32,000 bases of DNA. Source: Pyrolobus fumarii 1A (lineage in GTDB: Archaea; Thermoproteota; Thermoprotei_A; Sulfolobales; Pyrodictiaceae). The position numbers and the translations under genes are program-made. Every line of letters begins with the position of its first letter. The stretch's first letter is position 1. Location: positions 810,001 to 842,000 of the forward strand of contig NC_015931.1 of the NCBI RefSeq assembly GCF_000223395.1, written 5' to 3'. Shown here one piece after another: positions 1,198-20,568 of this stretch. Below the pieces are notes generated by a model, which searched no databases, had not been told where the DNA came from, and saw only the letters and a program-made list of their open reading frames with translations.

Positions 1198-1284
1198 GCG
1201 GGGGTGCCCGAGCCAGGTCAAGGGGGCGGGCTCAAGACCCGCTGGCGTAGGCCGGCGTGGGTTCAAATCCCACCCCCCGCACCA
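1198..1284 (+). tRNA. tRNA-Leu, anticodon CAA, class II with long variable arm, encoded CCA, no intron
   Basis: Hand-folded cloverleaf. Acceptor GCGGGGG/CCCCCGC. Anticodon stem GCGGG/CCCGC with loop CTCAAGA. Variable arm GGC-GTAG-GCC. T arm GTGGG-TTCAAAT-CCCAC. Discriminator A followed by CCA. Confidence 0.95.
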
Positions 1285-1382
1285 CTCGCTTCTCTCACAC
1301 CACGTATCCTACGCGAGGCAGAGAGCCTCTAATACTCCTCCTGGCGCCAGACCACCCCTCGGGGCTCCTAGCTTTGCCAGTC

Positions 1383-3170
<1,788 letters not shown>

Positions 3171-3178
3171 ACCACAAC

Positions 3179-4543
3179 CTAGCACTTACTGATAGTTTTC
3201 TCTGCATAACTCAACGCCTCTTCTACCAGAGCCCTGTACGCACCCACGAAGCCCTCCGGCCTCAACACTTTCTCCAACTCATCCCTTGTCACCAACCTAG
3301 CCACGACTGGATTACGCAACAGCGCCTCTACCAGCGGCTCACCACGCTCATAAGCTTCTCTCGATACACTCATCACTAGCCTGTGAGCTTCATGCCTGGC
3401 CATACCCTTCGAGACTAGTAGAGCAACCACAGCTTCACTTAGCGCATGTCCACGCGTAAGCTCGAGGTTCCTCTTCATCGCATCCAGATTGAACCTCAAT
3501 CTCTTCTCGAGCAGCTCTATGGTGTCAACAAGCATCTGGTCAATCGTTAGTAGCATATGAGGTATCCATACCCTCTCGGCACTACTATTTGTAAGGTCGC
3601 GCTCGTGCCATAGGGCTATGTTTTCTAGAGCAGGAACCACTAGTCCACGTGTTATACGAGATAGGCCACATATACGCTCTGAGACGACAGGGTTAGCCTT
3701 ATGAGGCATTGCGCTGCTACCAACTCTGCCAAGCGGCGCTTCAACCCACTCGCCTATCTCCGGCCTTGACAGTTCCCTCACTTCAAGCGCAAATCTTTCC
3801 AGCACACCCGCTAGGCTTGCAAGCTGACAAGCTAACTCGGCTAGAGCTTCGCGTGGCGCAACTTGCGTTGTTATTACGTGAGGCTCTAGGCCTAGTTTTT
3901 CGGCTACCTTCTTGCGCAAGGCAAGTGCCTTCTCGACACCCCACAATAGCGTCCAGAAGGCCAGCGTACCGACACTCCCCCCTATCTTGGCTTTCACAAC
4001 ACGCTTCTCTACGTCACACAGAGCCTCGTAACGCCTAGCCAACTCGTACACGTAGTTGGCTAGCTTAAAGCCCAGTGTGACTGGCGAGGCATGCTGCCCA
4101 TGCGTCCGCCCAACAACAGGAACGTCAACATACTCCTTGGCTAACTTTGAAAGTATCTTTATAATGTGCTTGACACGAGCCTTTACAATTCTAACCGCCT
4201 CGCGTATAATGATAGCCCACGCGGTGTCAACTACATCATAACTTGTTAATCCTAGATGTACGTACCTGGCTGCTTCACCACCCGCCTTCTCGCCCAACAG
4301 TTCTGCTAACGCAGCAATATCGTGGCCACGTTTCTTCTCAGCTTCAAGCCACTCTTTGACAGTTATGCTCTCGGCTGCGTCACGTACCTTCGCTGCAATC
4401 CCGCCGGGCGCCAATCCAAGCTCCTCCATAGCCTCGACAACAGCTACCTCCACACGCAGAAGATGCCTCATCCACGATTCTAGAGAGAGCAGGTCACGCA
4501 TCTCCTTGGAGCCATATCTCCACTCGAATACGCACACAGGCAA
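3179..4543 (-). CDS. purB: Adenylosuccinate lyase
   Basis: Fumarate-lyase superfamily signature GSSAMPHKANP. N-terminal WRYGSKEMR is typical of PurB. Length 454 aa. The start is TTG 4543, or GTG 6 nt downstream. Confidence 0.9.
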   Translation of the reverse strand: MPVCVFEWRYGSKEMRDLLSLESWMRHLLRVEVAVVEAMEELGLAPGGIAAKVRDAAESITVKEWLEAEKKRGHDIAALAELLGEKAGGEAARYVHLGLTSYDVVDTAWAIIIREAVRIVKARVKHIIKILSKLAKEYVDVPVVGRTHGQHASPVTLGFKLANYVYELARRYEALCDVEKRVVKAKIGGSVGTLAFWTLLWGVEKALALRKKVAEKLGLEPHVITTQVAPREALAELACQLASLAGVLERFALEVRELSRPEIGEWVEAPLGRVGSSAMPHKANPVVSERICGLSRITRGLVVPALENIALWHERDLTNSSAERVWIPHMLLTIDQMLVDTIELLEKRLRFNLDAMKRNLELTRGHALSEAVVALLVSKGMARHEAHRLVMSVSREAYERGEPLVEALLRNPVVARLVTRDELEKVLRPEGFVGAYRALVEEALSYAEKTISKC

Positions 4544-5506: not shown

Positions 5507-6799
5507 TCAACTGATACTGCCTTTCTCGAGCGCAGCGTTAAGATTACCCTTCTCGAGCTCCTTTATGATCGCGATGTACTCGTCATGGCTCTTTGGAGTC
5601 TTGAATACTATCTCACCCTTCATTATCTTCTCTTTCAACTCCTCCATTATCTTCCAAGCCTCTTGCGGTATCCACTTCTCACGCTGCTCCTTCACAATCT
5701 TCACTACCTCTTCAGGTGTCAAGTCTTTCAGTCTACCAGTCTCGTAGGCTAGCTGTGCGAACCACTTGACGCCTTCCAGATCCCATATGCCGACGCCTCC
5801 CTCTTTGAGACCAAGAGTATGGATTCCACCCTCCCAGTTACCCTCGACTACATTGCGTATAGCCGTGTATACTGCAACATCTACGCGCTTAGCACCACTG
5901 AGTATAATGTGGTATGGGTCGTACCATTCCTGGCTGGCATCCTGGCCTATGGCGAATGCTATTCCATAGCCTTTCTCGTTCCACTCTCTTACAGCGTCAA
6001 ACATGCCGACGTGTGTGAGGCCCGCGAGACCGTAGAGCACCTTAGCACCTTTCTGGAGCAGGTCCCAGGCTGCGCGATAGCCCTTCTGAGTATCGGTGAA
6101 GGTGCCTGTATACGTCCATAGCAACTCAACTTTCTTGCCAGTCTTCAGCTCGTAGTACTTTGCGCCGAATAAGTAGCCTATGTGGAACTTCCAGAGCGGC
6201 GGTATATCCATACCGGCAACCGCGCCGATCTTTATTGGCCCCGTCTCACCCTCCACCTGCATAATCTTGTCCGCAATGCCAGCAGCTAGAACGCCTATCA
6301 ACGCTGCACATTCCTGCTCACGGAATAGTATGTCGATCTCGTTTTCTCTAACCACACCGGTAGTCGCGTCGATAAGCGCATACTTCTGCTGCGGGAACTT
6401 GTCAGCCGTCTTGTTCAACGGGTCGGTCCAGAGGAAGCCCACCAGGATTATCACATCATACTCTCCGGTTTTGCTCAGCCTCTCCAGCAGAGGCTGCATG
6501 TCAGCCTGGCTTCTAGGCGTCGAGTACTTCACCTCTACTCCTAACTCTCTAGCCGCTCTCTCAGCACCAAGCCAAGCCATGTCATTGAAGCTTAGATCAC
6601 CACGTCCACCAACATCGAACAAGACTAGTACTTTGGCCTTTGGTTTCGGTTTTGTTTCTACACCCGTGCTTGGCGTGGTACTTGTTTCGCCGGGTGTGAT
6701 TGGTGAGGGTTTCTCACTAGGCTTTGCAAGAAGTACCGCTGTGGCTAGTGCAGCCGCCACTATCACAATAACAAGTGCGATGAGTAGGTTACGGTTCAC
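5507..6799 (-). CDS. BMP/PnrA-family ABC transporter substrate-binding protein (nucleoside/purine-type), membrane-anchored
   Basis: BMP-family core VLVLFDVGGRGDLSFNDMAWLG. N-terminal TM helix followed by a Thr/Pro-rich linker. GTG start at 6799. Divergent from the cognate ATPase/permease genes. Confidence 0.85.
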   Translation of the reverse strand: MNRNLLIALVIVIVAAALATAVLLAKPSEKPSPITPGETSTTPSTGVETKPKPKAKVLVLFDVGGRGDLSFNDMAWLGAERAARELGVEVKYSTPRSQADMQPLLERLSKTGEYDVIILVGFLWTDPLNKTADKFPQQKYALIDATTGVVRENEIDILFREQECAALIGVLAAGIADKIMQVEGETGPIKIGAVAGMDIPPLWKFHIGYLFGAKYYELKTGKKVELLWTYTGTFTDTQKGYRAAWDLLQKGAKVLYGLAGLTHVGMFDAVREWNEKGYGIAFAIGQDASQEWYDPYHIILSGAKRVDVAVYTAIRNVVEGNWEGGIHTLGLKEGGVGIWDLEGVKWFAQLAYETGRLKDLTPEEVVKIVKEQREKWIPQEAWKIMEELKEKIMKGEIVFKTPKSHDEYIAIIKELEKGNLNAALEKGSIS

Positions 6800-6831
6800 T
6801 ATGCTCCACCCGGGTTAATGCCATGTATCTA

Positions 6832-6841
6832 GATTATAAAA
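6832..6841. promoter_or_regulatory. TATA-like element (GATTATAAAA / TTTTATAATC) in the divergent BMP-transporter intergenic region
   Basis: It is the most AT-rich element I see in 6800-6958. It lies about 38 nt upstream of the GTG start of the minus-strand binding-protein gene. Its use by the plus-strand operon would imply a 70-120 nt leader. Confidence 0.4.
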
Positions 6842-6958
6842 CGGTTGTAGTGTCGGATTCAACGTGGGAAGTCAAGGTCTAAGGCTTCTAAGGTTCGTCT
6901 ACACAACGTTTTGCCCCGGGAGAAAGCCCTGAGAAAGAGCGCCACTTACGCTGTTGAA

Positions 6959-8437
6959 ATGCTAGGCATTGTGAAGGTATACCCGGATGGCACTGTAGCA
7001 CTGAGAGGCGTCGATTTCCGTGCCCGCCCAGGCGAGATTCATGCGCTTCTAGGCGAGAATGGTGCCGGCAAAACAACGCTCATGAGGATATTGTACGGCG
7101 AGATTCGCCCCACGCGTGGAGAGATACGTGTGTTTGGAGAGAAAGTGTCGTTCAGAAGCCCTCGAGATGCGCTTAAACGCGGTATCGCAATGGTGTATCA
7201 GCATTTCTCACTGGTGCCCACTTTCACAGCATTCGAGAACATATACATGGCTGTAGGCAGCATATCGAGGGTATCGCGGAGAGAGTTGAGAATCGAGGTA
7301 GAAGAGCTGATGAGAGAACTTGGTTTGAAAGTACCCCTAGACGAAGTTGTCGAGAAGCTACCCGTCGGCATTCAACAGAGAGTAGAGCTGCTCAAGGCTC
7401 TTGCGCTTAAGGCTAAGATATTGATACTTGACGAGCCTACCTCGGTATTGTCGCCTGCGGAGGCTGAGGGTCTGTTCAGGTTACTTAAGAGGCTCCGGGA
7501 TGAGGGCCACACTGTGATATACATCACACACAAGTTGAGAGAGGTACACGAATTAGCAGACACAGTGACTGTAATGAGGCGCGGCAAGGTAGTAGCCTCA
7601 TCCCTTGATGCGAGAAGTGTTGACGAAGCTACACTGGCGAGACTTATGGTTGGCGAGGAGATAGTCACCCAAGCCTACCCGCTATCTCGTCGTGTTGGCC
7701 CTCCGGTGCTTGTTATACGCGACTTATGGGTTCGTGGCGATCGCGGCGAGTGGCGAGTACGTGGCGTTAGCCTCGAGGTTAGAAGGGGAGAGATACTCGG
7801 CATAGCTGGTGTACAGGGAAGCGGACAGAATGAACTTGCGGAAGCTATAGTTGGCCTACGTAAACCGGAGAAGGGTACGATTCTCCTGGATGGCGTCGAT
7901 ATAACACGACTTAGTGTTGAGGACCGTTACCGCTTGGGTATAGCGTACATCATTGACTCTAGGAGCGTAGGCCTCGTACAGGATATGAGCGTGGTTGATA
8001 ATTCGATACTCACGTGGCTATGGAGGTTTGTCCGCCGCGGGATGATAGACTATAGTGAGGCCGCATCACATGCAAAAAGGATCGTTGAGAAGTATAACGT
8101 TGTCACACCCAGCCTGTGGTCACGGGTGCGCTACTTGAGCGGGGGCAATCAACAGAAGTTGCTTGTAGGCCGCGAGGCGGAAAAGCAACCAAAACTACTC
8201 ATTGCAGCCGAACCTACTCATGGTCTAGATGTGCGTGCCGCTAGGTTTGTACGCGAAACGCTAGTAAAGTTACGCGATGAGGGTATTGCGGTACTCCTAA
8301 TATCCTCTGATCTGGATGAGGTGCTCTCGGTCAGTGACCGGATAGCCGTGATGCATGAGGGTCGTATAATTGCTGTCGAGCCCCGGAACGAGATGAGTAG
8401 AGAGAAGATCGGCTTGCTTATGGGTGGTGCAGCTTGA
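6959..8437 (+). CDS. ABC transporter ATP-binding protein with duplicated ATPase domains (CUT2/RbsA-like, BMP system)
   Basis: Two Walker A motifs (GENGAGKTT and GVQGSGQNE) and the signature LSGGNQQK. ATG 6959 is preferred over the ORF-track TTG 6911. Confidence 0.88.
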   Translation: MLGIVKVYPDGTVALRGVDFRARPGEIHALLGENGAGKTTLMRILYGEIRPTRGEIRVFGEKVSFRSPRDALKRGIAMVYQHFSLVPTFTAFENIYMAVGSISRVSRRELRIEVEELMRELGLKVPLDEVVEKLPVGIQQRVELLKALALKAKILILDEPTSVLSPAEAEGLFRLLKRLRDEGHTVIYITHKLREVHELADTVTVMRRGKVVASSLDARSVDEATLARLMVGEEIVTQAYPLSRRVGPPVLVIRDLWVRGDRGEWRVRGVSLEVRRGEILGIAGVQGSGQNELAEAIVGLRKPEKGTILLDGVDITRLSVEDRYRLGIAYIIDSRSVGLVQDMSVVDNSILTWLWRFVRRGMIDYSEAASHAKRIVEKYNVVTPSLWSRVRYLSGGNQQKLLVGREAEKQPKLLIAAEPTHGLDVRAARFVRETLVKLRDEGIAVLLISSDLDEVLSVSDRIAVMHEGRIIAVEPRNEMSREKIGLLMGGAA

Positions 8438-10376: not shown

Positions 10377-11882
10377 TTAGGAGCGCCTTAACCACTTATC
10401 GAGTGTCGAGCCGCTATCCCTCTTCTTCAATACCCTCTCCACAAACCTATCCCTAACCGGCTCGTAAACCTCCTTGTAGAACCTCTGGGGATCCATCAGC
10501 ACACTCTTTGGGAACTTCTTTACATACTCAAGAGCCGCTCTCCACGCCTCCTCAAAGTTAATACCAGCCTCTTCGAACTTCCTTGTAACCTGTCGATCGA
10601 AATCCTCGGGACGTTGCTCAACCCCACCCATCATGAACCATCCATCAGGGCCCACCTGCACCTTCTCGCCTGCAACAATCTTCCATTCCCCTTCGCCACC
10701 GCCCCTCCTATAGTAGCGTTTGGAGGAAGACGACTCGCTAGCACTACTGGCAACGTGTATCCTGGCGCGCCTCGCAGGCCCATAGTACTTGGCCCATGCG
10801 TAGAAGATTGCGCGGTTTAGACCGAAGCTCTTCGCCTTATCCATGTCGCCGTAGAGCAGGTAGTAACGAGCAGCCTGCAACAAAGCCATAACAGGAAACC
10901 TGCCGGGTTCGCGAGGCTCACTAGGCCTCAACGCTTGTTGTACTAGGCCGGCGTTATACCCGAAGCCTAGCTTGGAGGCTCTTGCTTCCATTAGCGTTCT
11001 CTTCTTCACCTTGCCTATTCTTTTCAATGCCTCCTCTGCTAGGCTGGTTGCCTCGCCTCTCTCATAGACCCTCCAAGCGCTAGGATCGTGTTGATAGCTA
11101 TCCGGCCTTGACCAGTCGGGTGTAAATTCGTCGAGAGCATCTGGTTTTAACGTTACAGCTACACTATCTAAGCGTCGGTGCAGGCTTAGGGGCGCTGTGA
11201 ACACCCTCTTTGGCGCCACGAGGTTCTCTATCTTTATCATGCCTTTGCTTTTGACGACTACCTCCCATAGCTTGGGCTCAAGCGATTCGAGAACATACTC
11301 TGCAACGGCAAATGCAACATCTATGGGATGCGCGCCAAGATGTTCGTAGTCGAAAGCTCCCTCGTGTATCCTCAGGTGCATCCCTGCGCCGCTCCAGAGC
11401 AGGTAAACGCTACGCTTGACGCCACGCTCTTCTAGCCACTCGCTAATCAAGCGCGCCGCCTCAACGACATACTTCCAGGCATCAGCAACTCTGGACTCAT
11501 CAACGATATCAATGTCTATGAATACCGTTGCAGCTTTTACATTACCATCGTACCCCTCTTCAACGTCACTAGGCGTTTCCAGCCTTTTGAACAGCTCTAT
11601 GGTGCCATAGAAAGTCCTAGGCTTGATGGCTTGGAACACGCTAAGAACCCTAACAACGTCTCCTGGCTTACAAATGCTCAACGGCCTTCTTTCGAGCCAC
11701 CTCGCCCATCTCTTCCCTTCACCCTCAACTGCAGCCCATCTACCACAAAGGAATGCAGCTACCTCCTCAGCTACATCACCACGTTTATAGTACTCAACTG
11801 GATTCACTGGCAAGAGGCGGAACCCCCACACTATCTTTTCACGGTGTAGTAGGGAAACCGTATTTTGGGCAAATGAGGACAA
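10377..11882 (-). CDS. Archaeo-eukaryotic-primase (AEP)-like protein with a long helical C-terminal extension
   Basis: Ordered motifs are TVFIDIDIVD (aa 119-128, nt 11499-11528), LLWSGAGMHLRIH (aa 161-173) and KRVFTAPLSLHRR (aa 225-237), matching AEP motifs I (DxD), II (SGxGxH) and III. TTG start at 11882; GTG 11831 is an alternative. Confidence 0.6.
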   Translation of the reverse strand: MSSFAQNTVSLLHREKIVWGFRLLPVNPVEYYKRGDVAEEVAAFLCGRWAAVEGEGKRWARWLERRPLSICKPGDVVRVLSVFQAIKPRTFYGTIELFKRLETPSDVEEGYDGNVKAATVFIDIDIVDESRVADAWKYVVEAARLISEWLEERGVKRSVYLLWSGAGMHLRIHEGAFDYEHLGAHPIDVAFAVAEYVLESLEPKLWEVVVKSKGMIKIENLVAPKRVFTAPLSLHRRLDSVAVTLKPDALDEFTPDWSRPDSYQHDPSAWRVYERGEATSLAEEALKRIGKVKKRTLMEARASKLGFGYNAGLVQQALRPSEPREPGRFPVMALLQAARYYLLYGDMDKAKSFGLNRAIFYAWAKYYGPARRARIHVASSASESSSSKRYYRRGGGEGEWKIVAGEKVQVGPDGWFMMGGVEQRPEDFDRQVTRKFEEAGINFEEAWRAALEYVKKFPKSVLMDPQRFYKEVYEPVRDRFVERVLKKRDSGSTLDKWLRRS

Positions 11883-11896
11883 AAGGCCAAACAGCG

Positions 11897-12772
11897 ATGC
11901 GAGATATAGCTAGACGCGCTAAGGTCGTGTTTATACTCGTCTACCTACTTCTCTTGTACTACCTGCTTTACAAGCTGCTACCCACGGCTCTCCAGCCGCC
12001 ACCTAACCCGCTAGCAGCCTTAGCATCGCTAGTAGTGTTTCTAACTGCCGAGGTTATCAGGAGCGCACGTCTAGCCCTGCTGTATTGGGGGCGTTTAGAC
12101 CACAACGTCTTCTGGAAGGCTCTTCGAGCGAGGCTGGCTGGCAACGTCGTGGCAATCGTCACTCCCAGCGTTGCTGGCGGCGAAGTGGTACGCGGCCTCG
12201 TACTCCACGGCGAGCTGAGCTGGGGCGCCGCGAGGGCTATAGGAATAGCCTCCATTGACGGAGGGCTGGACATGGTTATTGACTACGCACTTGCATTGGT
12301 CGCACTGTTGCTAGGCGCTGCCCCTGCCGCGCCACTCCCCGAGCTACTCTCGCTGCCACCGGCGCTTCTATGGATACTAGTTCTTGTTCTAATCACGACT
12401 AGGCACGCACACCGTATGCTAGAGGCTCTAGCCGGTAGACTGAAGGAGGGGAGGCTTGGCAGGATAAGTGGATTAGTTAACGAGGTTTCGGGTATCCACG
12501 TACCACCCTATCGCCTTGCAGCATCCCTCCTGTTATCCATCGCTGCTTGGCTTCTCCAGACACTCAGCTACGCTCTATACTCGGGCATAGAACTGGACAA
12601 GAGCTTGGGCTGCGTTACAGAGCTTTACCTGATGGGCGTCATACCTTCTCCTGGTGGTATTGGGCCCGGAGAACTGCTACTGGCTAACTCGTGCCCCGGA
12701 ATAGCGTCTTGGAGAGCTGCAGCCCTACTGGTGTCCACCGTACCTGGTATACCCTTGGTTCTAAAAAAGTAG
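11897..12772 (+). CDS. Polytopic membrane protein, UPF0104 / lysyl-phosphatidylglycerol-synthase-TM (flippase-like) family
   Basis: RSARLALLYWG...LAGNVVAIVTPSVAGGEVVRGLVL matches the family hallmark (R..R..L, then TP-x-x-GGE-x-x-R). Multiple hydrophobic helices. ATG 11897 is preferred (ATG 11873 also possible); the ORF-track start at 11753 overlaps the divergent gene. Confidence 0.6.
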   Translation: MRDIARRAKVVFILVYLLLLYYLLYKLLPTALQPPPNPLAALASLVVFLTAEVIRSARLALLYWGRLDHNVFWKALRARLAGNVVAIVTPSVAGGEVVRGLVLHGELSWGAARAIGIASIDGGLDMVIDYALALVALLLGAAPAAPLPELLSLPPALLWILVLVLITTRHAHRMLEALAGRLKEGRLGRISGLVNEVSGIHVPPYRLAASLLLSIAAWLLQTLSYALYSGIELDKSLGCVTELYLMGVIPSPGGIGPGELLLANSCPGIASWRAAALLVSTVPGIPLVLKK

Positions 12773-13834: not shown

Positions 13835-14049
13835 TATCAGGTCCCACGTCTACACACCCACTACCACCAGTTAAGGAGAGAAACGCGGCCACGTGCACCA
13901 CTCAGAACTCCATTGACGATAGACGAGTGTCTGTAGTATATACGGGACCTGTGCACAGGATGATACCCCCTACCATCCTGTTCAGGCGAGACACGGGTTC
14001 ACCACTTGCTTCACGGTAACACCATCCGGTGTTCCCCACGGGTAGCCAC

Positions 14050-14688
14050 ATGGATACTACCATCACGCCGGGGAGGCCTAGGGGACGCAAAGTCATAATC
14101 CTCCTTGACCATCTCCTGGCTAGTGGAGAGAAGGGTGCGACCGCCGCCGAACTAGCACACGTCGCCGGCATCGCATCCAAACAGGTCTATCCACTACTAC
14201 GATGGTGGATCGAGAAGCGTGTAGTTATCGTGGAGAAGGTTGGATGGCTAAACATCTACAAGCTCAACACGAGAATAAAGAGGGCCCTCGAGAAGCTACT
14301 ACGTATAATACTCCGATCCCGTGAGGCACGCGTAGCATCTCTAGCTCAGAGACTTGCTGAGCACAAACTACTCCGCCGATTATCACCTGTCGAGAAGGAG
14401 ATACTCGCCCTACTAGCCGAGAGGATACTATCTGGTTCACCTTACCTGAGAATCCACGCAGAAAACCCCAGACAAGCCCTCGACATACTCAAAGTAAAGC
14501 TTGAGTCGCGTTTCCGCGCCCTCGGTTTAAACCCTAACGAGATATCAGCACTGCTCCTAGAAACAGATGAGGCGCTTAACGAGCTAAACGAGGCAGGTCT
14601 AGTCTACATGGCTTGGGATACACGTAACCACACACTTATTCTCAGGCTTGACAAATCCCTCGAGGAAGAGCTGCACCAGCTTCTCTAG
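14050..14688 (+). CDS. Hypothetical DNA-binding protein with N- and C-terminal winged-helix-like modules
   Basis: The N-terminal part, GATAAELAHVAGIASKQVYPLLRWWIEKRVVIVEKVGWLNIYKL, has a helix-turn-helix plus beta-wing pattern. The C-terminal part, DEALNELNEAGLVYMAWDTRNHTLILRL, looks like a second wing. The middle is helical. ATG 14050 is preferred; GTG 14029 is an alternative. Confidence 0.55.
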   Translation: MDTTITPGRPRGRKVIILLDHLLASGEKGATAAELAHVAGIASKQVYPLLRWWIEKRVVIVEKVGWLNIYKLNTRIKRALEKLLRIILRSREARVASLAQRLAEHKLLRRLSPVEKEILALLAERILSGSPYLRIHAENPRQALDILKVKLESRFRALGLNPNEISALLLETDEALNELNEAGLVYMAWDTRNHTLILRLDKSLEEELHQLL

Positions 14689-15055: not shown

Positions 15056-15314
15056 GCCAGGATGATCGGAAGAAGTGTGCGTGGTGCACGCGTGTTTGTG
15101 CTGACAAGCGCCTAGAGGATGGGTGGGCGCCCCTGGCGCTGGGCTGGCTGAAGATGTGTAGTAGTAAATGGTGCTCAGCGGGGGGTCTGGTGTCCGCCGG
15201 TCATCGTCCCCCGGTTTCGGGGGCCTCTGGCGGTGGGCGGGCGTGTATTGCAGGCACAGTTCAAGGGTTGATATGTGATTAGATGCAGTAACCGGCTGTC
15301 CAAGGCGGGCTTTT
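15056..15314 (+). ncRNA. Candidate structured non-coding RNA of unknown class (~260 nt)
   Basis: A markedly G/GC-rich block (by eye) sits inside an otherwise AT-richer intergenic region. A TATA-like TATTTT lies at 15026-15031, about 27 nt upstream. The ends are complementary (15056-15069 GCCAGGATGATCGG with 15292-15306 CCGGCTGTCCAAGGC, 12 pairs including G-U). Internal hairpins include TGCGTG/CACGCG (15078-15092), GCGCC/GGCGC (15127-15139), and CCCCCG-GTTT-CGGGGG (15207-15222) nested in CCGCC/GGCGG (15194-15198 with 15229-15233). It ends at TTTT 15311-15314. The only ORF here (15049-15282) encodes an implausible Cys/Gly/Trp-rich peptide. Confidence 0.35.
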
Positions 15315-15387
15315 GGGTAGAAAAGACAGGGTTAACTATCATGTACTTCCTGCTGATTATGATTGGGTCGAACGGAGGTTGGCCAGC

Positions 15388-18300
15388 ATGCACCGACTGT
15401 ATAATTTCTCGTTGCAAGTGATCGTAGCACTTGTCGTGCTTACTATTGCTGTGCCTATCGTTGCTGCTGGAGAGAGTGTAGTGTTGAAAGCATGGCTAGG
15501 TGTTGGAGGCGTAGAGGGCGACGCCAGGCTAGTATGGCTACCCTGTAACGGCTCATTAACGCCATTCTACCATATCGTGTATGTCGTGCCGCCCGGGTAC
15601 GATGTTGCTAGCGTGAAACCCGTCGTAGTATGGAGGCAGGGTGTAGATCTGCCTGTTCTACCTCCAGCGGCTATAATAGAGAGAGTATATCCTAAAGCTG
15701 ATACGAGCTTTGCAAGCCACTCCTACTCTTGCAAAGCTATTGAGGTGCAGCATGGTGTATGGCGGGGTGCAGAGATAGTAACTGTGTTAGTTGCGCTGTA
15801 CTCGAGTAGAGGGCTAGCCGCAAGCGTGAGCGCGTACATAGATATAGTCAGGCATCCTGGCGAGAAGAGCTTCCTGTACCCCCTGGACGCCAAGCTGTTA
15901 TACTCGATAGCGACGAAACCGCCGATATCCTCTCTCGGGAGTATCAAAACGCCATACAATATTGGAATAATCGTGGTCACGCGTAGCATGTTTCTACCTG
16001 TTGTCGAAGAATGGGCGGAAATCAAGGAGAGACAAGGCTACCGTGTAGAGATAGTTACACTGGAAGATTTGTGCAAGAGGATGGCTGCGGGTATCGATCT
16101 GCGTGAACAGCTAAGAGATTACATTCGCAGGTTGTACGAGGAGAGTAATGGTGTCTATCGCTACCTAGTCATAGTTGGCGACGCTAGCGGAAACTTCTGG
16201 AGCTCGAGCATAACATCGTGCGACGTGTTGAGCCCCTGGGAAGTGCCAACACAGTACTTCTATAACCCGGCATCAGCGGACGACGTTAGGACTAGTCACA
16301 GTGGATACTTCGTCCCGTCTGACATATACTATGTCACCTTTGACGGCAACTGGGATGCGGATGGAGACGGGATACTTGGCGAGTACCCGGACGATGTAGC
16401 AGCATACGATCCGTACCCTGAGATGATCGTTGCCAGGATACCCGTGAGGAGTCTTGCAGAGGCTAGACAAGCTCTATTAGCCATGGAGGATGTTTACCCA
16501 ACTACAAACTCGATACTCCTAGCTGGCTCCATACTCTACTATCGCGGCGAGGAGCCCTATCCAGAGCTAGCTGCGCAAGGAGACACTATGCTAGAAGGCC
16601 TCTATTCTTCAACGCTAGAGCCGCTAGGGTGGATAAGGGCAGAGAGGCTCTACGAGCACTATCCGGTAGAAAAGGTTATAGTATCACCGGTTGACCTTAA
16701 CGGTAACCTAACCCACGACACTATGAGACTCGCTTTACAAAGCGAGACCCGGATGGTGACAATCTTCGCGCATGGAAGTAAGAGTTGTGTATGGAGGAAG
16801 GTATGGGTGAGTGATACAAATGGAAATGGAGAGCCCGACCCGGATGAGATAACATTCAAGCCTTTCCTCTGCGCCGAGGATGCGCCACTAGTCAAGCCGC
16901 AGTTGCTCTATGCTACTGCAGCCTGCCTTACAGCCTATTTTGATGACCCCACATTGCTATCTCTAGGCGAAGCTCTCGCTGTACAGGGTTCGCAGTATGT
17001 GGGTTGGAGCAGGATAACGTTCGGGCCTCTGCTTCCTCCAGATGCGCAAATGGATCCTAACAAATGGTGTTGCAGCGACCGTCTCGTCTACTACCTATAC
17101 CTGCATCTCGTAGCGCGCGACTCTGTAAGTCGTATTGGTGATGCGTTGTTACACGCGCTTGTAGAGTATGTTAGTACTGAGCCGTTGGATGCGCAGGGTT
17201 TTGACGGCAACGTGTCGAGGCGTGTGTTCTTCGCCCTAATGTATATGGGTGATCCGACTCGCCTTGCGTACTCGACACCGACGCTCTTCAACCCCAGCCT
17301 AAGTATCATCCCGACAACACCATACTCCACGGTTAACGTTGTGTTAAAGCTGCTCACTAAGCGTGGCGAGGTAGTGGAAAACGCACCAGTAACTGTTTAC
17401 AAGCTACTCGAGCCGCCTTATGGCATAAGCCTACCTCTAGGCCAGAAGTACACTCTACAAGATGGCACGGTAACGTTCAGTCTCAATGTTGGTGTTGAGC
17501 CGGAAAGCTACATCGTATACTACCCTGGTAGCACAGTACCCCCAAACCCGCTTGAACCAACAGCAGCGATAATCACGCTCAACACGAGCCTAGCCCCTTG
17601 GGTGGTAGCGACTCCATCTACACTAGCGCCAGGACAATGGGTGACAATCGTAGCATGTAACTTCCCCCGACTCTCACAGCTAGAGGTCTACGCCGAGGGA
17701 GTTCTAGTCACGAAGGTCTACACCAACTCGAGCGGATGTGCTGCACAGCGTATTGCTCTCCCATACACGCTGCCCCCAGGGAGGATCGCACTCACTGTGG
17801 TGTACCCGCGCGATTCCAGTATCCGAGCATCAACAAGCATAGTCATCGTGTCAAACTTGTTGATGGATATGCATGATAAGCTAGAGCGAATAGAAGCTAG
17901 GCTGGCCACTGTAACAGACTACCTGAGGAGTCTACACGAGAAGCTACAAGCTATCTATGAGAGTCTCACGGCATTACAAGACGAGCTTAGCAAGCTAGAG
18001 CAAGCTAACCGTGTGGTGCTGAACGAGCTAAACATAACGGCTACAACCCTAATACACGAGCTCGACATGCTCGCATTACATGTCAACACGGTCAAGGAGT
18101 TAGTGGTGAGCATGGCTAGTGACGTAAAAGAATCGAAAACAGTGTTGTACAAGGTTGTTGAGAATCTGGATGGCTTAAGCGAAAAAATGGCTAAGATACG
18201 CGAGAAGGCAGTAAAACTCGAGGAACTACTCAACAACCACTCTAGTAGGTTGGCAGAATATATAGAAGAAACTCGTTCACAGCTACTCCAGGCGATCAGC

Positions 18301-18789
18301 GAGGCACGTAATGCACTAGGGGAGGCTATCCAACAGCTAGACAGCTTGACTAGAGACCTTGCTACAAACATATCACGCATAGATGCCAGGCTAGGCAGCG
18401 TTGACGCGAAGCTCGCGAGGCTCGAAGAGAACATAACAGCCATTCACGGTAAAATTGTCGAACTCCAGGGACGCATTGCATCGGTATCATCGAGGCTGGG
18501 GAAAGTGAATGTCGTGTTAACCACTCTGCTAGGCAACATGACAAGGCACCTCCTTAGACTCGAGAACGAACTTGACAAGAGCACGTCGGACATCATGAGT
18601 GCAGTGATGGAGTTAAAGAGTATAGTGGATGGCAGGTTGAGAGTGATAAACGTCACGCTAGATGATATAAAGAGTAGGGTCAGTAATGTCGAGCAGGTAA
18701 GTCATAGACTCACGGCGCTAGTAGTGGCAGGCTTAGTAGCGGCTGGCATTGCAGCCGGCGCAGCGCTGCTGAGGAGAGGAGGGTCATAG
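15388..18789 (+). CDS. Surface-anchored clan-CD cysteine peptidase (C25/gingipain-like) with Ig-like domains, a long coiled-coil stalk and a C-terminal TM anchor
   Basis: ATG 15388 gives a signal/anchor helix (LQVIVALVVLTIAVPIVAAGES) and has a TATA-like GATTATGA about 30 nt upstream. C25-like core: IIVVTRS...YLVIVGDAS...PSDIYY...IVARIPV. Catalytic dyad candidates are IFAHGS (His codon 16771-16773) and ATAACLTAYFDD (Cys codon 16924-16926). Heptad-rich segment at about 17851-18710. Hydrophobic C-terminal helix at 18709-18771 followed by RRGGS. Many N-x-S/T sequons. Confidence 0.8.
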   Translation: MHRLYNFSLQVIVALVVLTIAVPIVAAGESVVLKAWLGVGGVEGDARLVWLPCNGSLTPFYHIVYVVPPGYDVASVKPVVVWRQGVDLPVLPPAAIIERVYPKADTSFASHSYSCKAIEVQHGVWRGAEIVTVLVALYSSRGLAASVSAYIDIVRHPGEKSFLYPLDAKLLYSIATKPPISSLGSIKTPYNIGIIVVTRSMFLPVVEEWAEIKERQGYRVEIVTLEDLCKRMAAGIDLREQLRDYIRRLYEESNGVYRYLVIVGDASGNFWSSSITSCDVLSPWEVPTQYFYNPASADDVRTSHSGYFVPSDIYYVTFDGNWDADGDGILGEYPDDVAAYDPYPEMIVARIPVRSLAEARQALLAMEDVYPTTNSILLAGSILYYRGEEPYPELAAQGDTMLEGLYSSTLEPLGWIRAERLYEHYPVEKVIVSPVDLNGNLTHDTMRLALQSETRMVTIFAHGSKSCVWRKVWVSDTNGNGEPDPDEITFKPFLCAEDAPLVKPQLLYATAACLTAYFDDPTLLSLGEALAVQGSQYVGWSRITFGPLLPPDAQMDPNKWCCSDRLVYYLYLHLVARDSVSRIGDALLHALVEYVSTEPLDAQGFDGNVSRRVFFALMYMGDPTRLAYSTPTLFNPSLSIIPTTPYSTVNVVLKLLTKRGEVVENAPVTVYKLLEPPYGISLPLGQKYTLQDGTVTFSLNVGVEPESYIVYYPGSTVPPNPLEPTAAIITLNTSLAPWVVATPSTLAPGQWVTIVACNFPRLSQLEVYAEGVLVTKVYTNSSGCAAQRIALPYTLPPGRIALTVVYPRDSSIRASTSIVIVSNLLMDMHDKLERIEARLATVTDYLRSLHEKLQAIYESLTALQDELSKLEQANRVVLNELNITATTLIHELDMLALHVNTVKELVVSMASDVKESKTVLYKVVENLDGLSEKMAKIREKAVKLEELLNNHSSRLAEYIEETRSQLLQAISEARNALGEAIQQLDSLTRDLATNISRIDARLGSVDAKLARLEENITAIHGKIVELQGRIASVSSRLGKVNVVLTTLLGNMTRHLLRLENELDKSTSDIMSAVMELKSIVDGRLRVINVTLDDIKSRVSNVEQVSHRLTALVVAGLVAAGIAAGAALLRRGGS

Positions 18790-18858: not shown

Positions 18859-20568
18859 CTACAGAGTTGTCACGAGACTCCCTATCTCCTCGGCTATATC
18901 TACAACCATGCGTGTCGCTTGACGTAGTACATTTCGAGTCTCGTCGTCACTGTAGCCACATGCTCTATACGCGTGTTCAACTACCTTGCTTTCTAGTTTT
19001 CCCGCCCTAGCCCTAAACGCTGGATGTGGCAGCTCAGGAAGCTCGGGTAGCGGCGGGAATGTAACGACAACCTTACTCCTAATGCCACCGCTGCTTAGAA
19101 GCTCCCCTATAGGTGACGTGTCTAGCTCATGTAAGGTGTAGACCCTCTTGTTCTCGCGGTGCACGACCAGCACGGGCTCATCTCTAGAGTATACAGGATA
19201 CACCGTGTACGTGACTATTATCAATGGAGTGTTTTCAAGCGCCTCGAAGTATGGTTGTAGCATCCTCTTTATCGCTGGAAGCGATACTCTACGAGAGCGC
19301 CTTGTCATCCTCGATACTATTATGTTGGCCTTTTTGCCGCTAAGGTAGAGGCTCGGGGGGTGTTTCCTCGCTGTAAGTACTCTAGAGTATATGCGGAGTG
19401 CTGGACACGCCCAACGGCCATCCTCTAGCTTCTTCAGCCCCTCATAGATGCTAGACTCGTTGAAAGCTAGGAGTTCCGTCACAAGCTCTATTGACGGGTC
19501 TGTCAAAAGCCTGGCGCACTGCTCCAGTCTCTCCGGTCTATTCTCTTCGAGCTCGCTGTAGTTCACTAATGTGTCAACTATGCACTCGAGGAGCCTCCTC
19601 TCAAATCCCTCAACGCCTTCGAAACTCCTCTCGTAGAGTTGGAGGGCGGCGAGCATTAGAGTAGAGAGGAGGCGTGAGGCACCGGCTTCGTAAGCCAGCA
19701 CGACATCGTGAAGGTACACCTCGCTATACATGTACATTCTGCCTAGGAGCATGTTCTCTACGACCGATACACCCTTGTCGATCACCCCTACGTCGCTGTG
19801 GGCACCTCCAGGCAGCTCAGTCGGCGGCTCCCATGCAAGCACTAGTACGCTTATGAGGCGGTCCAAGTCGTACAGGCCATAGCTGACTCCAGCGCTTCTA
19901 CTATCACGTAGTAGATAATCACCTCTGTCAACATCCACTGTGCCGCTGAGGAGACGGGCAGGTATCCACAGTGCCTCGTCCTTCACTTCCTTGCTATCGC
20001 CGTACGAGTACTCTAAAATGGATGTCACAAGATCGAGTACGGTATGGGCGTGCAAGCCGCATAGTGTATCTTGCTTTGCGAGTAGCAGGTTGACTAGCAT
20101 AGTTGTTAGCTGTTCGTGCCCAGTAACTGGTATTGAGAGGCTCTCGGGGCCGTGTGCGCTTGAAACCACCTCATAGTCTTGTAGGGCTGTTTCGAAGACG
20201 TGGCTCCAAGCCAGATGGCCGAGGTCGTGTAGTAGCGCGGCTATCCCAGCAGCGCAGCGATACTCGCGGCTTTCGACGAGACGCTTTGCTAGCTGTGCGG
20301 CCTCGCTACCTTCTCCGTATATTCTCAGCGTGTTACGTACTATCGCATCAAGGGCTGTAAGCATGAGGTGTGCTACTCCGAGGCTATGCTCGAATCTGGT
20401 ATGCTGTAAGCCGGGATACACATAGTGTGATAAGCCTGTCTGCTTTATGTAGCGTAGTCTCTGGAAAAGCGGGTCATCAATGAGCTTGAAGAAGTCGGAG
20501 GGTAGTACTATGCTCGTGTGAACAGGATCCTTCACTATCTTAAAATCTGTGTCGAGCGGCACAGTCAA
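18859..20568 (-). CDS. HD-domain phosphohydrolase, SAMHD1/dNTP-triphosphohydrolase-like (COG1078 type)
   Basis: N-terminus KDPVHTSIVL...FQRLRYIKQTGL...HTRFEHSLGVAHL, plus LLHDLGHLAWSH and DVDRGDYLLRD, the canonical H..HD..D constellation of this family. Confidence 0.85.
   Translation of the reverse strand: MTVPLDTDFKIVKDPVHTSIVLPSDFFKLIDDPLFQRLRYIKQTGLSHYVYPGLQHTRFEHSLGVAHLMLTALDAIVRNTLRIYGEGSEAAQLAKRLVESREYRCAAGIAALLHDLGHLAWSHVFETALQDYEVVSSAHGPESLSIPVTGHEQLTTMLVNLLLAKQDTLCGLHAHTVLDLVTSILEYSYGDSKEVKDEALWIPARLLSGTVDVDRGDYLLRDSRSAGVSYGLYDLDRLISVLVLAWEPPTELPGGAHSDVGVIDKGVSVVENMLLGRMYMYSEVYLHDVVLAYEAGASRLLSTLMLAALQLYERSFEGVEGFERRLLECIVDTLVNYSELEENRPERLEQCARLLTDPSIELVTELLAFNESSIYEGLKKLEDGRWACPALRIYSRVLTARKHPPSLYLSGKKANIIVSRMTRRSRRVSLPAIKRMLQPYFEALENTPLIIVTYTVYPVYSRDEPVLVVHRENKRVYTLHELDTSPIGELLSSGGIRSKVVVTFPPLPELPELPHPAFRARAGKLESKVVEHAYRACGYSDDETRNVLRQATRMVVDIAEEIGSLVTTL

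Follow-up and report, generated by a model that had tools for sequence, protein, structure and literature searches.

Is a large minus-strand gene of Pyrolobus fumarii 1A an unusual form of the replicative primase gene, or does it encode a second primase-polymerase? The gene lies in a 32,000-nt stretch of contig NC_015931.1 (positions 810,001 to 842,000; hereafter, the window) as an open reading frame (ORF) of 501 amino acids. Accounts of replication in archaea usually name a single primase, PriSL, with the addition of PriX in Sulfolobus. The other archaeo-eukaryotic primases (AEPs) of prokaryotes are generally ascribed to mobile elements or to bacterial non-homologous end joining. An initial annotation, made from the DNA letters and a list of ORFs, recognized AEP motifs and a long C-terminal extension in the product. 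It offered two alternatives: a lineage-specific PriS fused to a PriX/PriCT-like helper, or a second, undescribed primase-polymerase. As judged from sequence comparisons, the product is a paralogous second AEP, separate from the replicative PriS with which it coexists. Its family is a distinct member of the known AEP superfamily and is uncurated: neither Pfam nor NCBIfam has a model for it, every named member is called a "hypothetical protein", and no description of it was found in the searchable full-text literature. What is new is the accessory fold and an unusual variant of the catalytic site.

The N-terminal domain has an AEP fold

The relationship to AEPs is detectable with profiles and structures and not by a single-sequence search. 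The target sequence alone had no match in Pfam (even at E <= 10), in NCBIfam, or in PDB sequences searched with phmmer. I refer below to three alignments: A1, consisting of 34 homologues with identities of 43-76%; A2, the profile of the C-terminal module (C-module); and A3, consisting of 24 canonical crenarchaeal PriS sequences.

The AlphaFold2 (AF2) model of the target has a mean predicted local distance difference test score (pLDDT) of 84.9, and residues 26-296 are mostly above 90. When this model was compared with the PDB using Foldseek, all of the top 50 matches were AEPs, 42 of them at E <= 1e-3. The best matches were the polymerase domain (PolDom) of LigD (2r9l, 5dmu, and 2fao) and Prim-PolC (6sa0 and 5op0), with E values from 3e-6 to 3e-5, target-normalised TM scores of 0.5-0.6, and sequence identities of 13-18%. 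Human, yeast, and Xenopus Pri1, Pyrococcus PriS, CAPP, and S-2L PrimPol were also matched. Among PDB sequences, the A1 profile found Pyrococcus PriS best (1G71, E 0.03; 9F26 and 9F28, E ~0.27), and this alignment registers exactly the DxD, SG.G.H, and KR....P..LH motifs. Weak matches to PF01896 were found in 12 of the 34 members (best E 3.7e-4), and weak matches to PF21686 (LigD_Prim-Pol) in two. The comparison of A1 with A3 by hhalign gave a probability of 94.5% (E 7.8e-8) over 215 columns, stopping at residue 256.

Since the conserved motifs, the profile matches, the AF2/Foldseek result, and the hhalign alignment agree, the assignment of the N-terminal ~270 residues to the AEP fold, as modelled, is solid. 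The domain has the fold, motif I, motif II, and third acidic residue of the superfamily, the last being Glu instead of Asp. The AEP-fold claim of the initial annotation is thus borne out by AlphaFold/Foldseek and profile comparisons, the checks that it had recommended.

The active site is a conserved variant of that of PriS

The peptides quoted in the initial annotation are all in place. TVFIDIDIVD occupies residues 119-128 (nt 11499-11528), WSGAGMHLRIH starts from W163, 38 residues past D125 (about 40 had been estimated), and PRTFYGTIELF corresponds to residues 88-98. Are the catalytic residues conserved? D123, D125, W163, S164, G165, G167, H169, E219, T229, P231, L232, S233, and H235 are invariant in all 34 homologues, and K225 and R226 are conserved in 33. 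Thus, D123, D125, and H169, whose conservation had been singled out for checking, do not vary in homologues down to 43% identity. Judging from these sequences, the motif set is far beyond chance. The catalytic residues are also retained in short forms of the family that consist of the AEP domain only.

One motif has to be reassigned. The peptide KRVFTAPLSLHRR, which had been taken for the third catalytic motif, is present, starting from K225, 56 residues past H169. However, E219 aligns with D235 of Sulfolobus PriS in hhalign; therefore, motif III is K-x-E219-N, and KRVFTAPLSLHRR is a nucleotide-binding element downstream of it. D235, the third catalytic Asp of Sulfolobus PriS, is invariant across A3. 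The same alignment pairs D123/D125 with D101/D103, A223 with D241, K225-R226 with K243-R244, T229 with R247, and H235 with H253. Position 223 is Asp in 14 of the 34 members and Ala in Pyrolobus.

The family resembles PriS/Pri1 (PF01896) in the AEP fold and in the collinear order of an N-terminal YY region, DxD, SG..G.H, an acidic motif III, and KR...P.S.H. In contrast, motif II (WSGA-GMH169 as opposed to FSGNRGFH179 in PriS) is one residue shorter and has lost the Arg, so that it is indeed of a non-PriS type, as had been noticed initially. Motif III has a Glu, and the invariant Thr229, six positions before the His, replaces an invariant Arg of PriS (Sulfolobus R247; conserved Arg/Lys). The zinc-knuckle insertion between motifs I and II is also missing, again as the initial annotation had stated: the Cys cluster of PriS (C108, C116, C128, and C145 in A3) falls into a gap of the family alignment, and the target has only two Cys residues (46 and 71), neither of which is conserved. 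In the AF2 model, one long helix (residues 129-152) connects motif I with motif II, as in PolDom-type enzymes.

The family coexists with canonical PriS

Is the target simply the PriS of its lineage? With Sulfolobus solfataricus PriS as the reference (checked against PDB 1ZT2_A; 330/330 identical), the BLASTP E value of the target is 0.3-0.5. In contrast, true PriS proteins, among them those of Thermofilum pendens, Desulfurococcales, and Fervidicoccus, match this reference at E <= 1e-46. All of these have PF01896, and some have PF20873 as well. The target does not reach the curated threshold of PF01896, nor does PF20873, the C-terminal domain of PriS, match the target or any of the 34 members.

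Canonical PriS proteins were then found alongside family members by a second search, seeded with Desulfurococcales PriS. Thermogladius sp. 4427co has a PriS (P0464) and a family protein (P0059) on the same 1,326,527-bp chromosome, Thermogladius sp. KZ2Tp1 has a PriS (P0476) in the same genome as a family locus (L028), and Staphylothermus hellenicus has both a PriS (P0429) and a family protein (P0068; 1,580,347-bp contig). Furthermore, when all of the retrieved family loci were searched by tblastn with the PriS set, a canonical PriS gene (1559-2743, minus strand) was detected on an Acidilobaceae contig (L024), 3.3 kb from the family gene (6001-7329). This PriS scores 64 bits to PF01896, as compared with a cut-off of 26.8. 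Because canonical PriS and family members share complete genomes and one contig, the target is regarded as a paralogue of PriS. The lineage-specific PriS of the initial annotation is rejected, and its other alternative, a second primase-polymerase, is favoured since PriS coexists, with the activity itself predicted from sequence.

A canonical priS was thus found in two Thermogladius strains, S. hellenicus, and the Acidilobaceae contig. For the genome at hand, which the initial annotation had recommended searching, none was retrieved: no Pyrolobus entry was among the best 120 matches in two PriS-seeded searches, and the genome scan for the family did not return the P. fumarii genome. From these relatives and from the near-universal, single-copy occurrence of PriS and PriL in archaea (PMC3914693), I infer that P. 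fumarii itself has a PriS beside the family gene. A PriL gene adjacent to the family gene was found in none of 83 family loci.

On the Acidilobaceae contig, the PriS gene is part of a PriS-PCNA-TFS cluster (1559-4113), and an M28 peptidase gene lies between the cluster and the family gene. This is a single case and could be a coincidence.

Could the family be a second, or even the main, replicative primase, in which the C-module replaces PriL and PriX while PriSL is redundant or specialised? I regard this as distinctly unlikely. The canonical PriS is kept in the same genomes, and both PriS and PriL are near-universal single-copy proteins in archaea (PMC3914693). This tells against a replicative role even if the family has a complete AEP active site homologous to that of PriS and is conserved broadly and vertically. 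A PCNA-binding-like tail (see below) would put the enzyme at the fork, and in the above contig the gene lies near the PCNA-PriS-TFS cluster. On the other hand, the family was not seen among named Sulfolobaceae matches, its best structural matches are repair AEPs, and it includes an inactivated form (P0134) and split forms, which would be unusual for an essential primase.

The modelled C-module matches no fold in PDB or BFVD

The family differs from PriS also in having an unrelated C-module of ~200 residues. The long C-terminal extension of the initial annotation is therefore upheld, and the helical block (residues 329-368) and the Ser/Gly/Arg-rich linker (residues 381-401) recognized at that time are both present. 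In the AF2 model, the C-module follows a disordered linker and has two parts, a helical hairpin (residues 327-368) and an alpha/beta domain (residues 398-486), with a second, Ser/Gly/Arg-rich disordered linker between them. The hairpin has 24 invariant positions and pLDDT values of 97-99. In A1, the C-module is conserved more strongly than the catalytic domain. When modelled alone, it had a pLDDT of 84.7 and a predicted TM score of 0.78.

Does the C-module resemble any known primase helper? Foldseek found no matching structure: the best E value was 3.8 for the PDB, with a probability <= 0.06, and 0.53 for BFVD. Among PDB sequences, the A2 profile had only spurious matches. Pfam PriCT matched neither the target nor the 34 members. 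The bundles of PriX, the C-terminal domain (CTD) of PriL, ORF904, and RepB' (5OF3, 3M1M, and 3H20; PMC6393858) were unmatched, although they were expected to be in the searched PDB library. A PriX, PriL-CTD, or PriCT identity is therefore unsupported by PDB, BFVD, and profile searches, and the PriX/PriCT-like helper of the initial annotation cannot be upheld for a confident model that matches nothing in PDB and BFVD. As modelled, the C-module is a new fold with no known structural relative in PDB or BFVD. Two other candidates were dismissed. A similarity of the hairpin to the Ku70 SAP domain (1JJR, E 0.14, A1 profile) was ascribed to chance, being reproduced neither by A2 nor by Foldseek, and matches of the C-module to the Kv1.1 T1 domain (E ~0.4, A2 profile) were spurious.

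The likeness to a PriX-type helper is limited to position and presumed role: the C-module is flexibly tethered, conserved, and in some lineages a separate polypeptide, as PriX is in Sulfolobus. In contrast, it has no sequence or structural similarity to PriX and no Fe-S cysteines, and it has a beta-strand subdomain besides the helices.

Stand-alone C-module genes encode proteins of 170-214 residues (P0159, P0169, and P0185), and AEP-only genes encode proteins of ~290-300 residues (P0143, P0150, and P0154). Such split halves (loci L084-L089) occur in Bathyarchaeia, Nitrososphaeria, and other lineages. Adjacent two-subunit operons were considered for them and rejected, as the inspected C-module-only and AEP-only genes have no adjoining partner. 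Since the C-module is conserved more strongly than the catalytic domain and is also encoded by stand-alone genes, it appears to be an autonomous functional unit. In P0134, a protein of 458 residues from a Logan assembly, FIG replaces DID, Glu replaces the His of motif II, Lys replaces E219, and Ile replaces H235. Its C-module is fully conserved despite the loss of these catalytic residues. From its sequence, P0134 looks like an inactivated paralogue, which suggests that the function of the C-module is independent of catalysis. As a rule, AEP primases depend on an additional domain for the initiating nucleotide (PMC6393858), and a helper role of the C-module in initiation is therefore plausible by analogy.

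The C-terminal tail resembles a PIP box

The tail (KKRDSGSTLDKWLRRS) has a feature missed by the initial annotation. At the very C-terminal end of the Pyrolobus protein, following a basic disordered stretch, STLDKWL (S492-L498) resembles a PCNA-interacting peptide (PIP) box, and the AF2 model has a short helix at residues 494-499. Other members have LLDFL, LDTFF, or LLDWM. The strict core pattern, [LIM]xx[WFY][LIFMWY], was found in 27 of the 34 A1 members and a relaxed one in five more. Of the full-length proteins from the loci, 47/74 (64%) have the strict core. In the two controls, neighbouring ORFs and shuffled tails, its frequency was 13% and 10%, respectively. The AEP-only forms end with a basic stretch followed by PLDKQIL or PLDKWII.

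The consensus of archaeal PIP boxes and their usual C-terminal position have been described (PMC3504372), and a C-terminal peptide of the Qxx[ILM]xx[FWY][FWYLIM] type in a disordered tail is what is found here. The Gln is usually absent from the tails of the family. In this respect they resemble Dpo4, which, like other translesion polymerases, tends to lack it (PMC3504372). It is possible that the tail docks the protein on PCNA.

The tail also bears on the possibility that the family is an AEP-fold nucleotidyltransferase acting on RNA, in repair or tailing, or has another non-DNA function. The Glu of motif III and Thr229 hint that substrates are handled differently, RNA-repair systems with divergent AEPs have been mentioned (PMC5862659), and the accessory fold matches nothing known. 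However, the PIP-like tail points to DNA transactions, as do all the detectable relatives (PriS, PolDom, and a mobile-element primase-helicase), and no RNA-ligase or kinase-phosphatase partner was found in the neighbourhoods. A role on RNA is thus highly improbable.

The family is chromosomal and widespread in archaea

How widely is the family distributed? Clustering at 90% identity gives 585 clusters. At 50% identity there are 543 representatives, and 91 of these match at E <= 1e-30. A genome scan, corresponding to the phyletic profile recommended in the initial annotation, found it in 352 species-representative genomes from several classes. The hosts belong to Pyrodictiaceae, Desulfurococcaceae, Acidilobaceae, Thermofilales, Bathyarchaeia, Methanomethylicia, Nezhaarchaeales, and thermophilic Nitrososphaeria, along with one Njordarchaeota metagenome-assembled genome (MAG). 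No Sulfolobaceae were among the named matches.

The neighbours of the Pyrolobus gene encode an ABC transporter, a membrane protein, and aspartate-semialdehyde dehydrogenase, and different housekeeping genes are found in other lineages. No integrase, plasmid, or viral neighbour was found in any inspected locus. No family member was found on 2.9 million viral contigs, there were no PHROGs or PADLOC matches, and the GC content of the window is unremarkable. A defence-system or phage origin was rejected on these grounds. The window neighbours and the viral-contig search agree with the chromosomal, non-mobile context described initially. The gene is chromosomal, vertically inherited, cellular, and ancient.

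Full-length members with 40-45% identity are also found outside Thermoprotei, in the Njordarchaeota MAG, which is labelled as Asgard (L080), and in Methanomethylicia/Culexmicrobium (L051, L060, and L071). They could result from horizontal transfer, binning contamination, or a wider ancestry.

A more distant relative is P0268, a protein of 1288 residues (L090, 2656-6522) whose N-terminal AEP domain is related to that of the family (E 3.6e-19). PriCT-1 and the MCM P-loop match this protein weakly, and a winged helix-turn-helix lies at its C-terminus. It is followed by an overlapping DHH (RecJ/Cdc45-like) gene, amid small orphan ORFs. It is probably the primase-helicase replication module of an archaeal mobile element.

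Could the family then be the replicase of a mobile element that was integrated long ago, now domesticated or decaying and without a function of its own in the cell? Mobile elements encode most prokaryotic AEPs other than PriS (PMC5862659), and P0268, in which the related AEP is fused to PriCT-1-like and MCM-like regions, has the architecture and context of one. The mobile-element prim-pols (pRN1 ORF904, RepB', PolpTN2, and the PrimPol-PV1 supergroup) likewise combine an AEP with an accessory initiation domain (PMC6393858, PMC5862659). In contrast, the C-module is unmatched to the PriX, PriCT, ORF904, and RepB' bundles in Foldseek, the family is chromosomal, and neither mobile neighbours nor members on viral contigs were found. 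With the catalytic residues invariant in 34 homologues and the family spread over so many species, a domesticated or decaying mobile replicase is extremely improbable.

Neighbouring genes were compared by clustering all ORFs in the 83 family loci, and no neighbour is strongly conserved across them. A cluster of ABC-ATPase neighbours was rejected as a paralogue artefact. The only recurrent neighbour is DUF72 (PF01904), which occurs within ~6 kb in nine of the 83 loci. These loci come from five lineages, and their family proteins share 31-54% identity. One Desulfurococcales clade (L017, L018, and L041) has DUF72 directly upstream of the family gene and on the same strand, only 2-64 nt away, an arrangement that looks operonic. 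DUF72 genes are located at 1375-2082 of L017, 5229-5936 of L018, 5294-5995 of L041, 8968-9678 of L082, and 2979-3683 of L089, and are also present in L007 and L059. DUF72 (Tm1631) is computationally predicted to be an endonuclease-IV-like repair enzyme (PMC3828134, PMC4939058).

In two Bathyarchaeia loci (L087, 4598-8885; L088, 1728-6015), the AEP-only gene lies beside genes for a PadR regulator and a RecA-family ATPase (RadB/KaiC-like). An ATP-dependent DNA ligase gene is found in the same loci, divergent to the AEP-only gene. A DNA ligase gene is nearby only in such Bathyarchaeia AEP-only loci, on the opposite strand. Ku, LigD-type ligase, and phosphoesterase neighbours were found neither in the window nor in the 83 loci. 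Another AEP-only variant, P0193 (401 residues, Nitrososphaerota MAG), has an N-terminal FkbM-type methyltransferase domain and a truncated AEP domain without the DxD region, and it could be either a genuine chimera or a fusion made by the gene caller.

Possible function in repair and damage tolerance

What might the enzyme do? I lean towards a PCNA-tethered, PriL-independent second primase-polymerase that serves repair or damage tolerance beside PriS. The AEP core would synthesise nucleic acid on DNA templates, without PriL, using D123, D125, and E219 as the predicted metal ligands, S164 and H169 of motif II, and K225, R226, T229, S233, and H235 as the putative nucleotide-binding residues. The C-module may hold the template and the initiating nucleotide, like PriX, PriL-CTD, or the bundles of plasmid prim-pols, and the C-terminal tail may dock the enzyme on PCNA. 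These three steps are proposed with moderate confidence. With lower confidence, the enzyme might reprime synthesis or fill gaps where forks have stalled or lesions have been processed, and not serve bulk Okazaki priming, which would be done by canonical PriSL. A role in repair or damage tolerance is suggested because canonical PriSL already covers replication priming, because the closest structures are those of repair AEPs (LigD PolDom and Prim-PolC), because DUF72, ligase, and RecA-family neighbours are found in some lineages, and because the non-canonical PIP-like tail resembles those of translesion polymerases.

The same structural matches raise the question of whether the family is an extension-only repair polymerase of the LigD-PolDom/Prim-PolC type, which would fill gaps or process ends between a nuclease and a ligase, with the C-module binding DNA ends or partners. 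LigD PolDom and Prim-PolC also lack the zinc knuckle and are stand-alone repair AEPs that coexist with a replicative primase. The weak PF21686 matches in two members and the neighbouring genes for DUF72, the predicted endonuclease-IV-like enzyme, and DNA ligase in some lineages would fit such a polymerase. However, the family gene is neither fused to nor regularly found next to Ku, a LigD-type ligase, or a phosphoesterase, and LigD PolDom and Prim-PolC have neither a C-module nor a PIP-like tail, sharing only low sequence identity with the target. The sequence profile is nearer to PriS than to PolDom (PF01896 in 12/34 members and the hhalign probability given above), and it is priming AEPs that typically have a large, conserved accessory module (PMC6393858). 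An extension-only enzyme is thus unlikely.

Some points weigh against the favoured role of a second primase-polymerase in damage tolerance. Its primase/polymerase activity, PCNA binding, and role in vivo are all predictions. PriS and the family were found together in related genomes, with the P. fumarii PriS not retrieved. The C-module has no similarity to known primase helpers, and its helper role is assigned by analogy. The PIP-like motif is missing in Thermogladius and, by the strict pattern, in about one third of the members, and ~10-13% of tails have such short motifs by chance. Neighbouring genes are mostly not conserved; DUF72 is found in only nine of the 83 loci and not in the Pyrolobus window, and its function is itself a prediction. 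Since Thr229 occupies an Arg/Lys site and Glu replaces Asp in motif III, the chemistry or the substrate could differ from those of classical primases.

Eukaryotic PrimPol offers a parallel to this proposed role, although it was absent from the top 50 Foldseek matches in the PDB. Eukaryotic PrimPol has a zinc finger of the UL52 type as its helper and binds RPA through its docking motifs. In contrast, the helper of the present family has no Cys/His cluster and no matching fold, and its tail motif resembles the PIP box for PCNA. On the other hand, eukaryotic PrimPol is likewise a second AEP beside the replicative primase, for damage tolerance, and consists of a core, a flexible linker, a C-terminal helper, and a C-terminal motif for docking on a fork protein (PMC6393858). 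A broader reading is possible, with the chances somewhat against it. In thermophilic TACK archaea (Desulfurococcales, Thermofilales, Bathyarchaeia, Methanomethylicia, and thermophilic Nitrososphaeria), the family could be an ancestral, self-sufficient, PCNA-docked "archaeal PrimPol" whose helper for initiation and template handling is a new fold that can also work as a separate subunit, restarting or repairing replication at damaged templates as an independent counterpart of eukaryotic PrimPol.

If the proposed role is true, a conserved chromosomal second AEP would be a missing player in the genome maintenance of hyperthermophiles, where template damage is constant. It would also provide a thermostable system for AEP initiation without a PriL/PriX-type or zinc-finger helper. 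The C-module, an orphan fold with ~45 invariant residues, is a target for structure solution. A thermostable primase-polymerase might prove useful in a manner comparable to TthPrimPol in whole-genome amplification.

Start codon and other features of the window

The features of the gene are listed in Table 1, where the residue numbering follows the 501-residue ORF.

Table 1. Features of the AEP-family gene of P. fumarii 1A in window coordinates.
Feature	Position	Strand	Remarks
Mechanically called ORF	10377..11882	-	TTG start; 501 aa + stop
Probable true coding sequence	10377..11807	-	GTG at residue 26; 476 aa + stop; corresponds to the NCBI hypothetical protein
AEP catalytic domain, residues 26-296	10995..11807	-	AF2, Foldseek, hhalign, weak PF01896
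Motif I, D123-I-D125, predicted metal ligands	11508..11516	-	Invariant in 34/34; aligns to PriS FDIDAD
Motif II, W163-S-G-A-G-M-H169	11376..11396	-	W, S, G, G, and H invariant; aligns to PriS FSGNRGFH
Motif III, K217-I-E219-N220	11223..11234	-	E219 in 34/34; proposed third carboxylate; aligns to PriS D235
Putative nucleotide-binding element, K225-R-V-F-T-A-P-L-S-L-H235-R236	11175..11210	-	Aligns to PriS KRLIRIPNSLH
Linker 1, residues 297-326	10905..10994	-	Disordered and variable: low pLDDT, poor conservation
Helical hairpin, residues 327-368 (GRFxVMALLQAARYY...KSFGLNRAIFYAWAKYYG)	10779..10904	-	Near-invariant; first half of the C-module
Linker 2, Ser/Gly/Arg-rich, residues 369-397	10692..10778	-	Disordered; pLDDT <50 over 371-395
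C-terminal alpha/beta domain, residues 398-486	10425..10691	-	Beta strands, then five helices; the other half of the C-module
PIP-box-like S492-T-L-D-K-W-L498	10389..10409	-	End of the basic disordered tail

Which start codon is used? A protein of 476 residues, listed by NCBI as "hypothetical protein [Pyrolobus fumarii]", matches the ORF with 100% identity. The GTG at 11807 is probably the real start, because the NCBI annotation has this length, because homologues and tblastn matches start at residues 13-31, and because residues 1-21 have pLDDT values <50 and are modelled as disordered. The TTG at 11882 is disfavoured because it would make a head-to-head overlap with the in-frame ATGs (11873 and 11897) of the divergent neighbour. 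This neighbour, as a mechanically called ORF (11753-12772, plus strand), encodes an LPG_synthase_TM-like membrane protein and covers the 5' end of the target gene; one of these two ATGs is probably its true start. From either ATG to the GTG at 11807, a divergent promoter region of 65-89 nt results. A TATA-like sequence, GCTATATC, is found at ~11905-11912 on the minus strand.

Elsewhere in the window, a plus-strand gene (15313-18789) encodes a protein of 1158 residues with a peptidase C25 (gingipain-like) domain, and two ORFs near it (14029-14688, plus strand; 18859-20568, minus strand) have no Pfam match. An 87-nt tRNA-Leu (CAA) gene at 1198-1284 on the plus strand overlaps the start of a mechanically called ORF (1257-3170).

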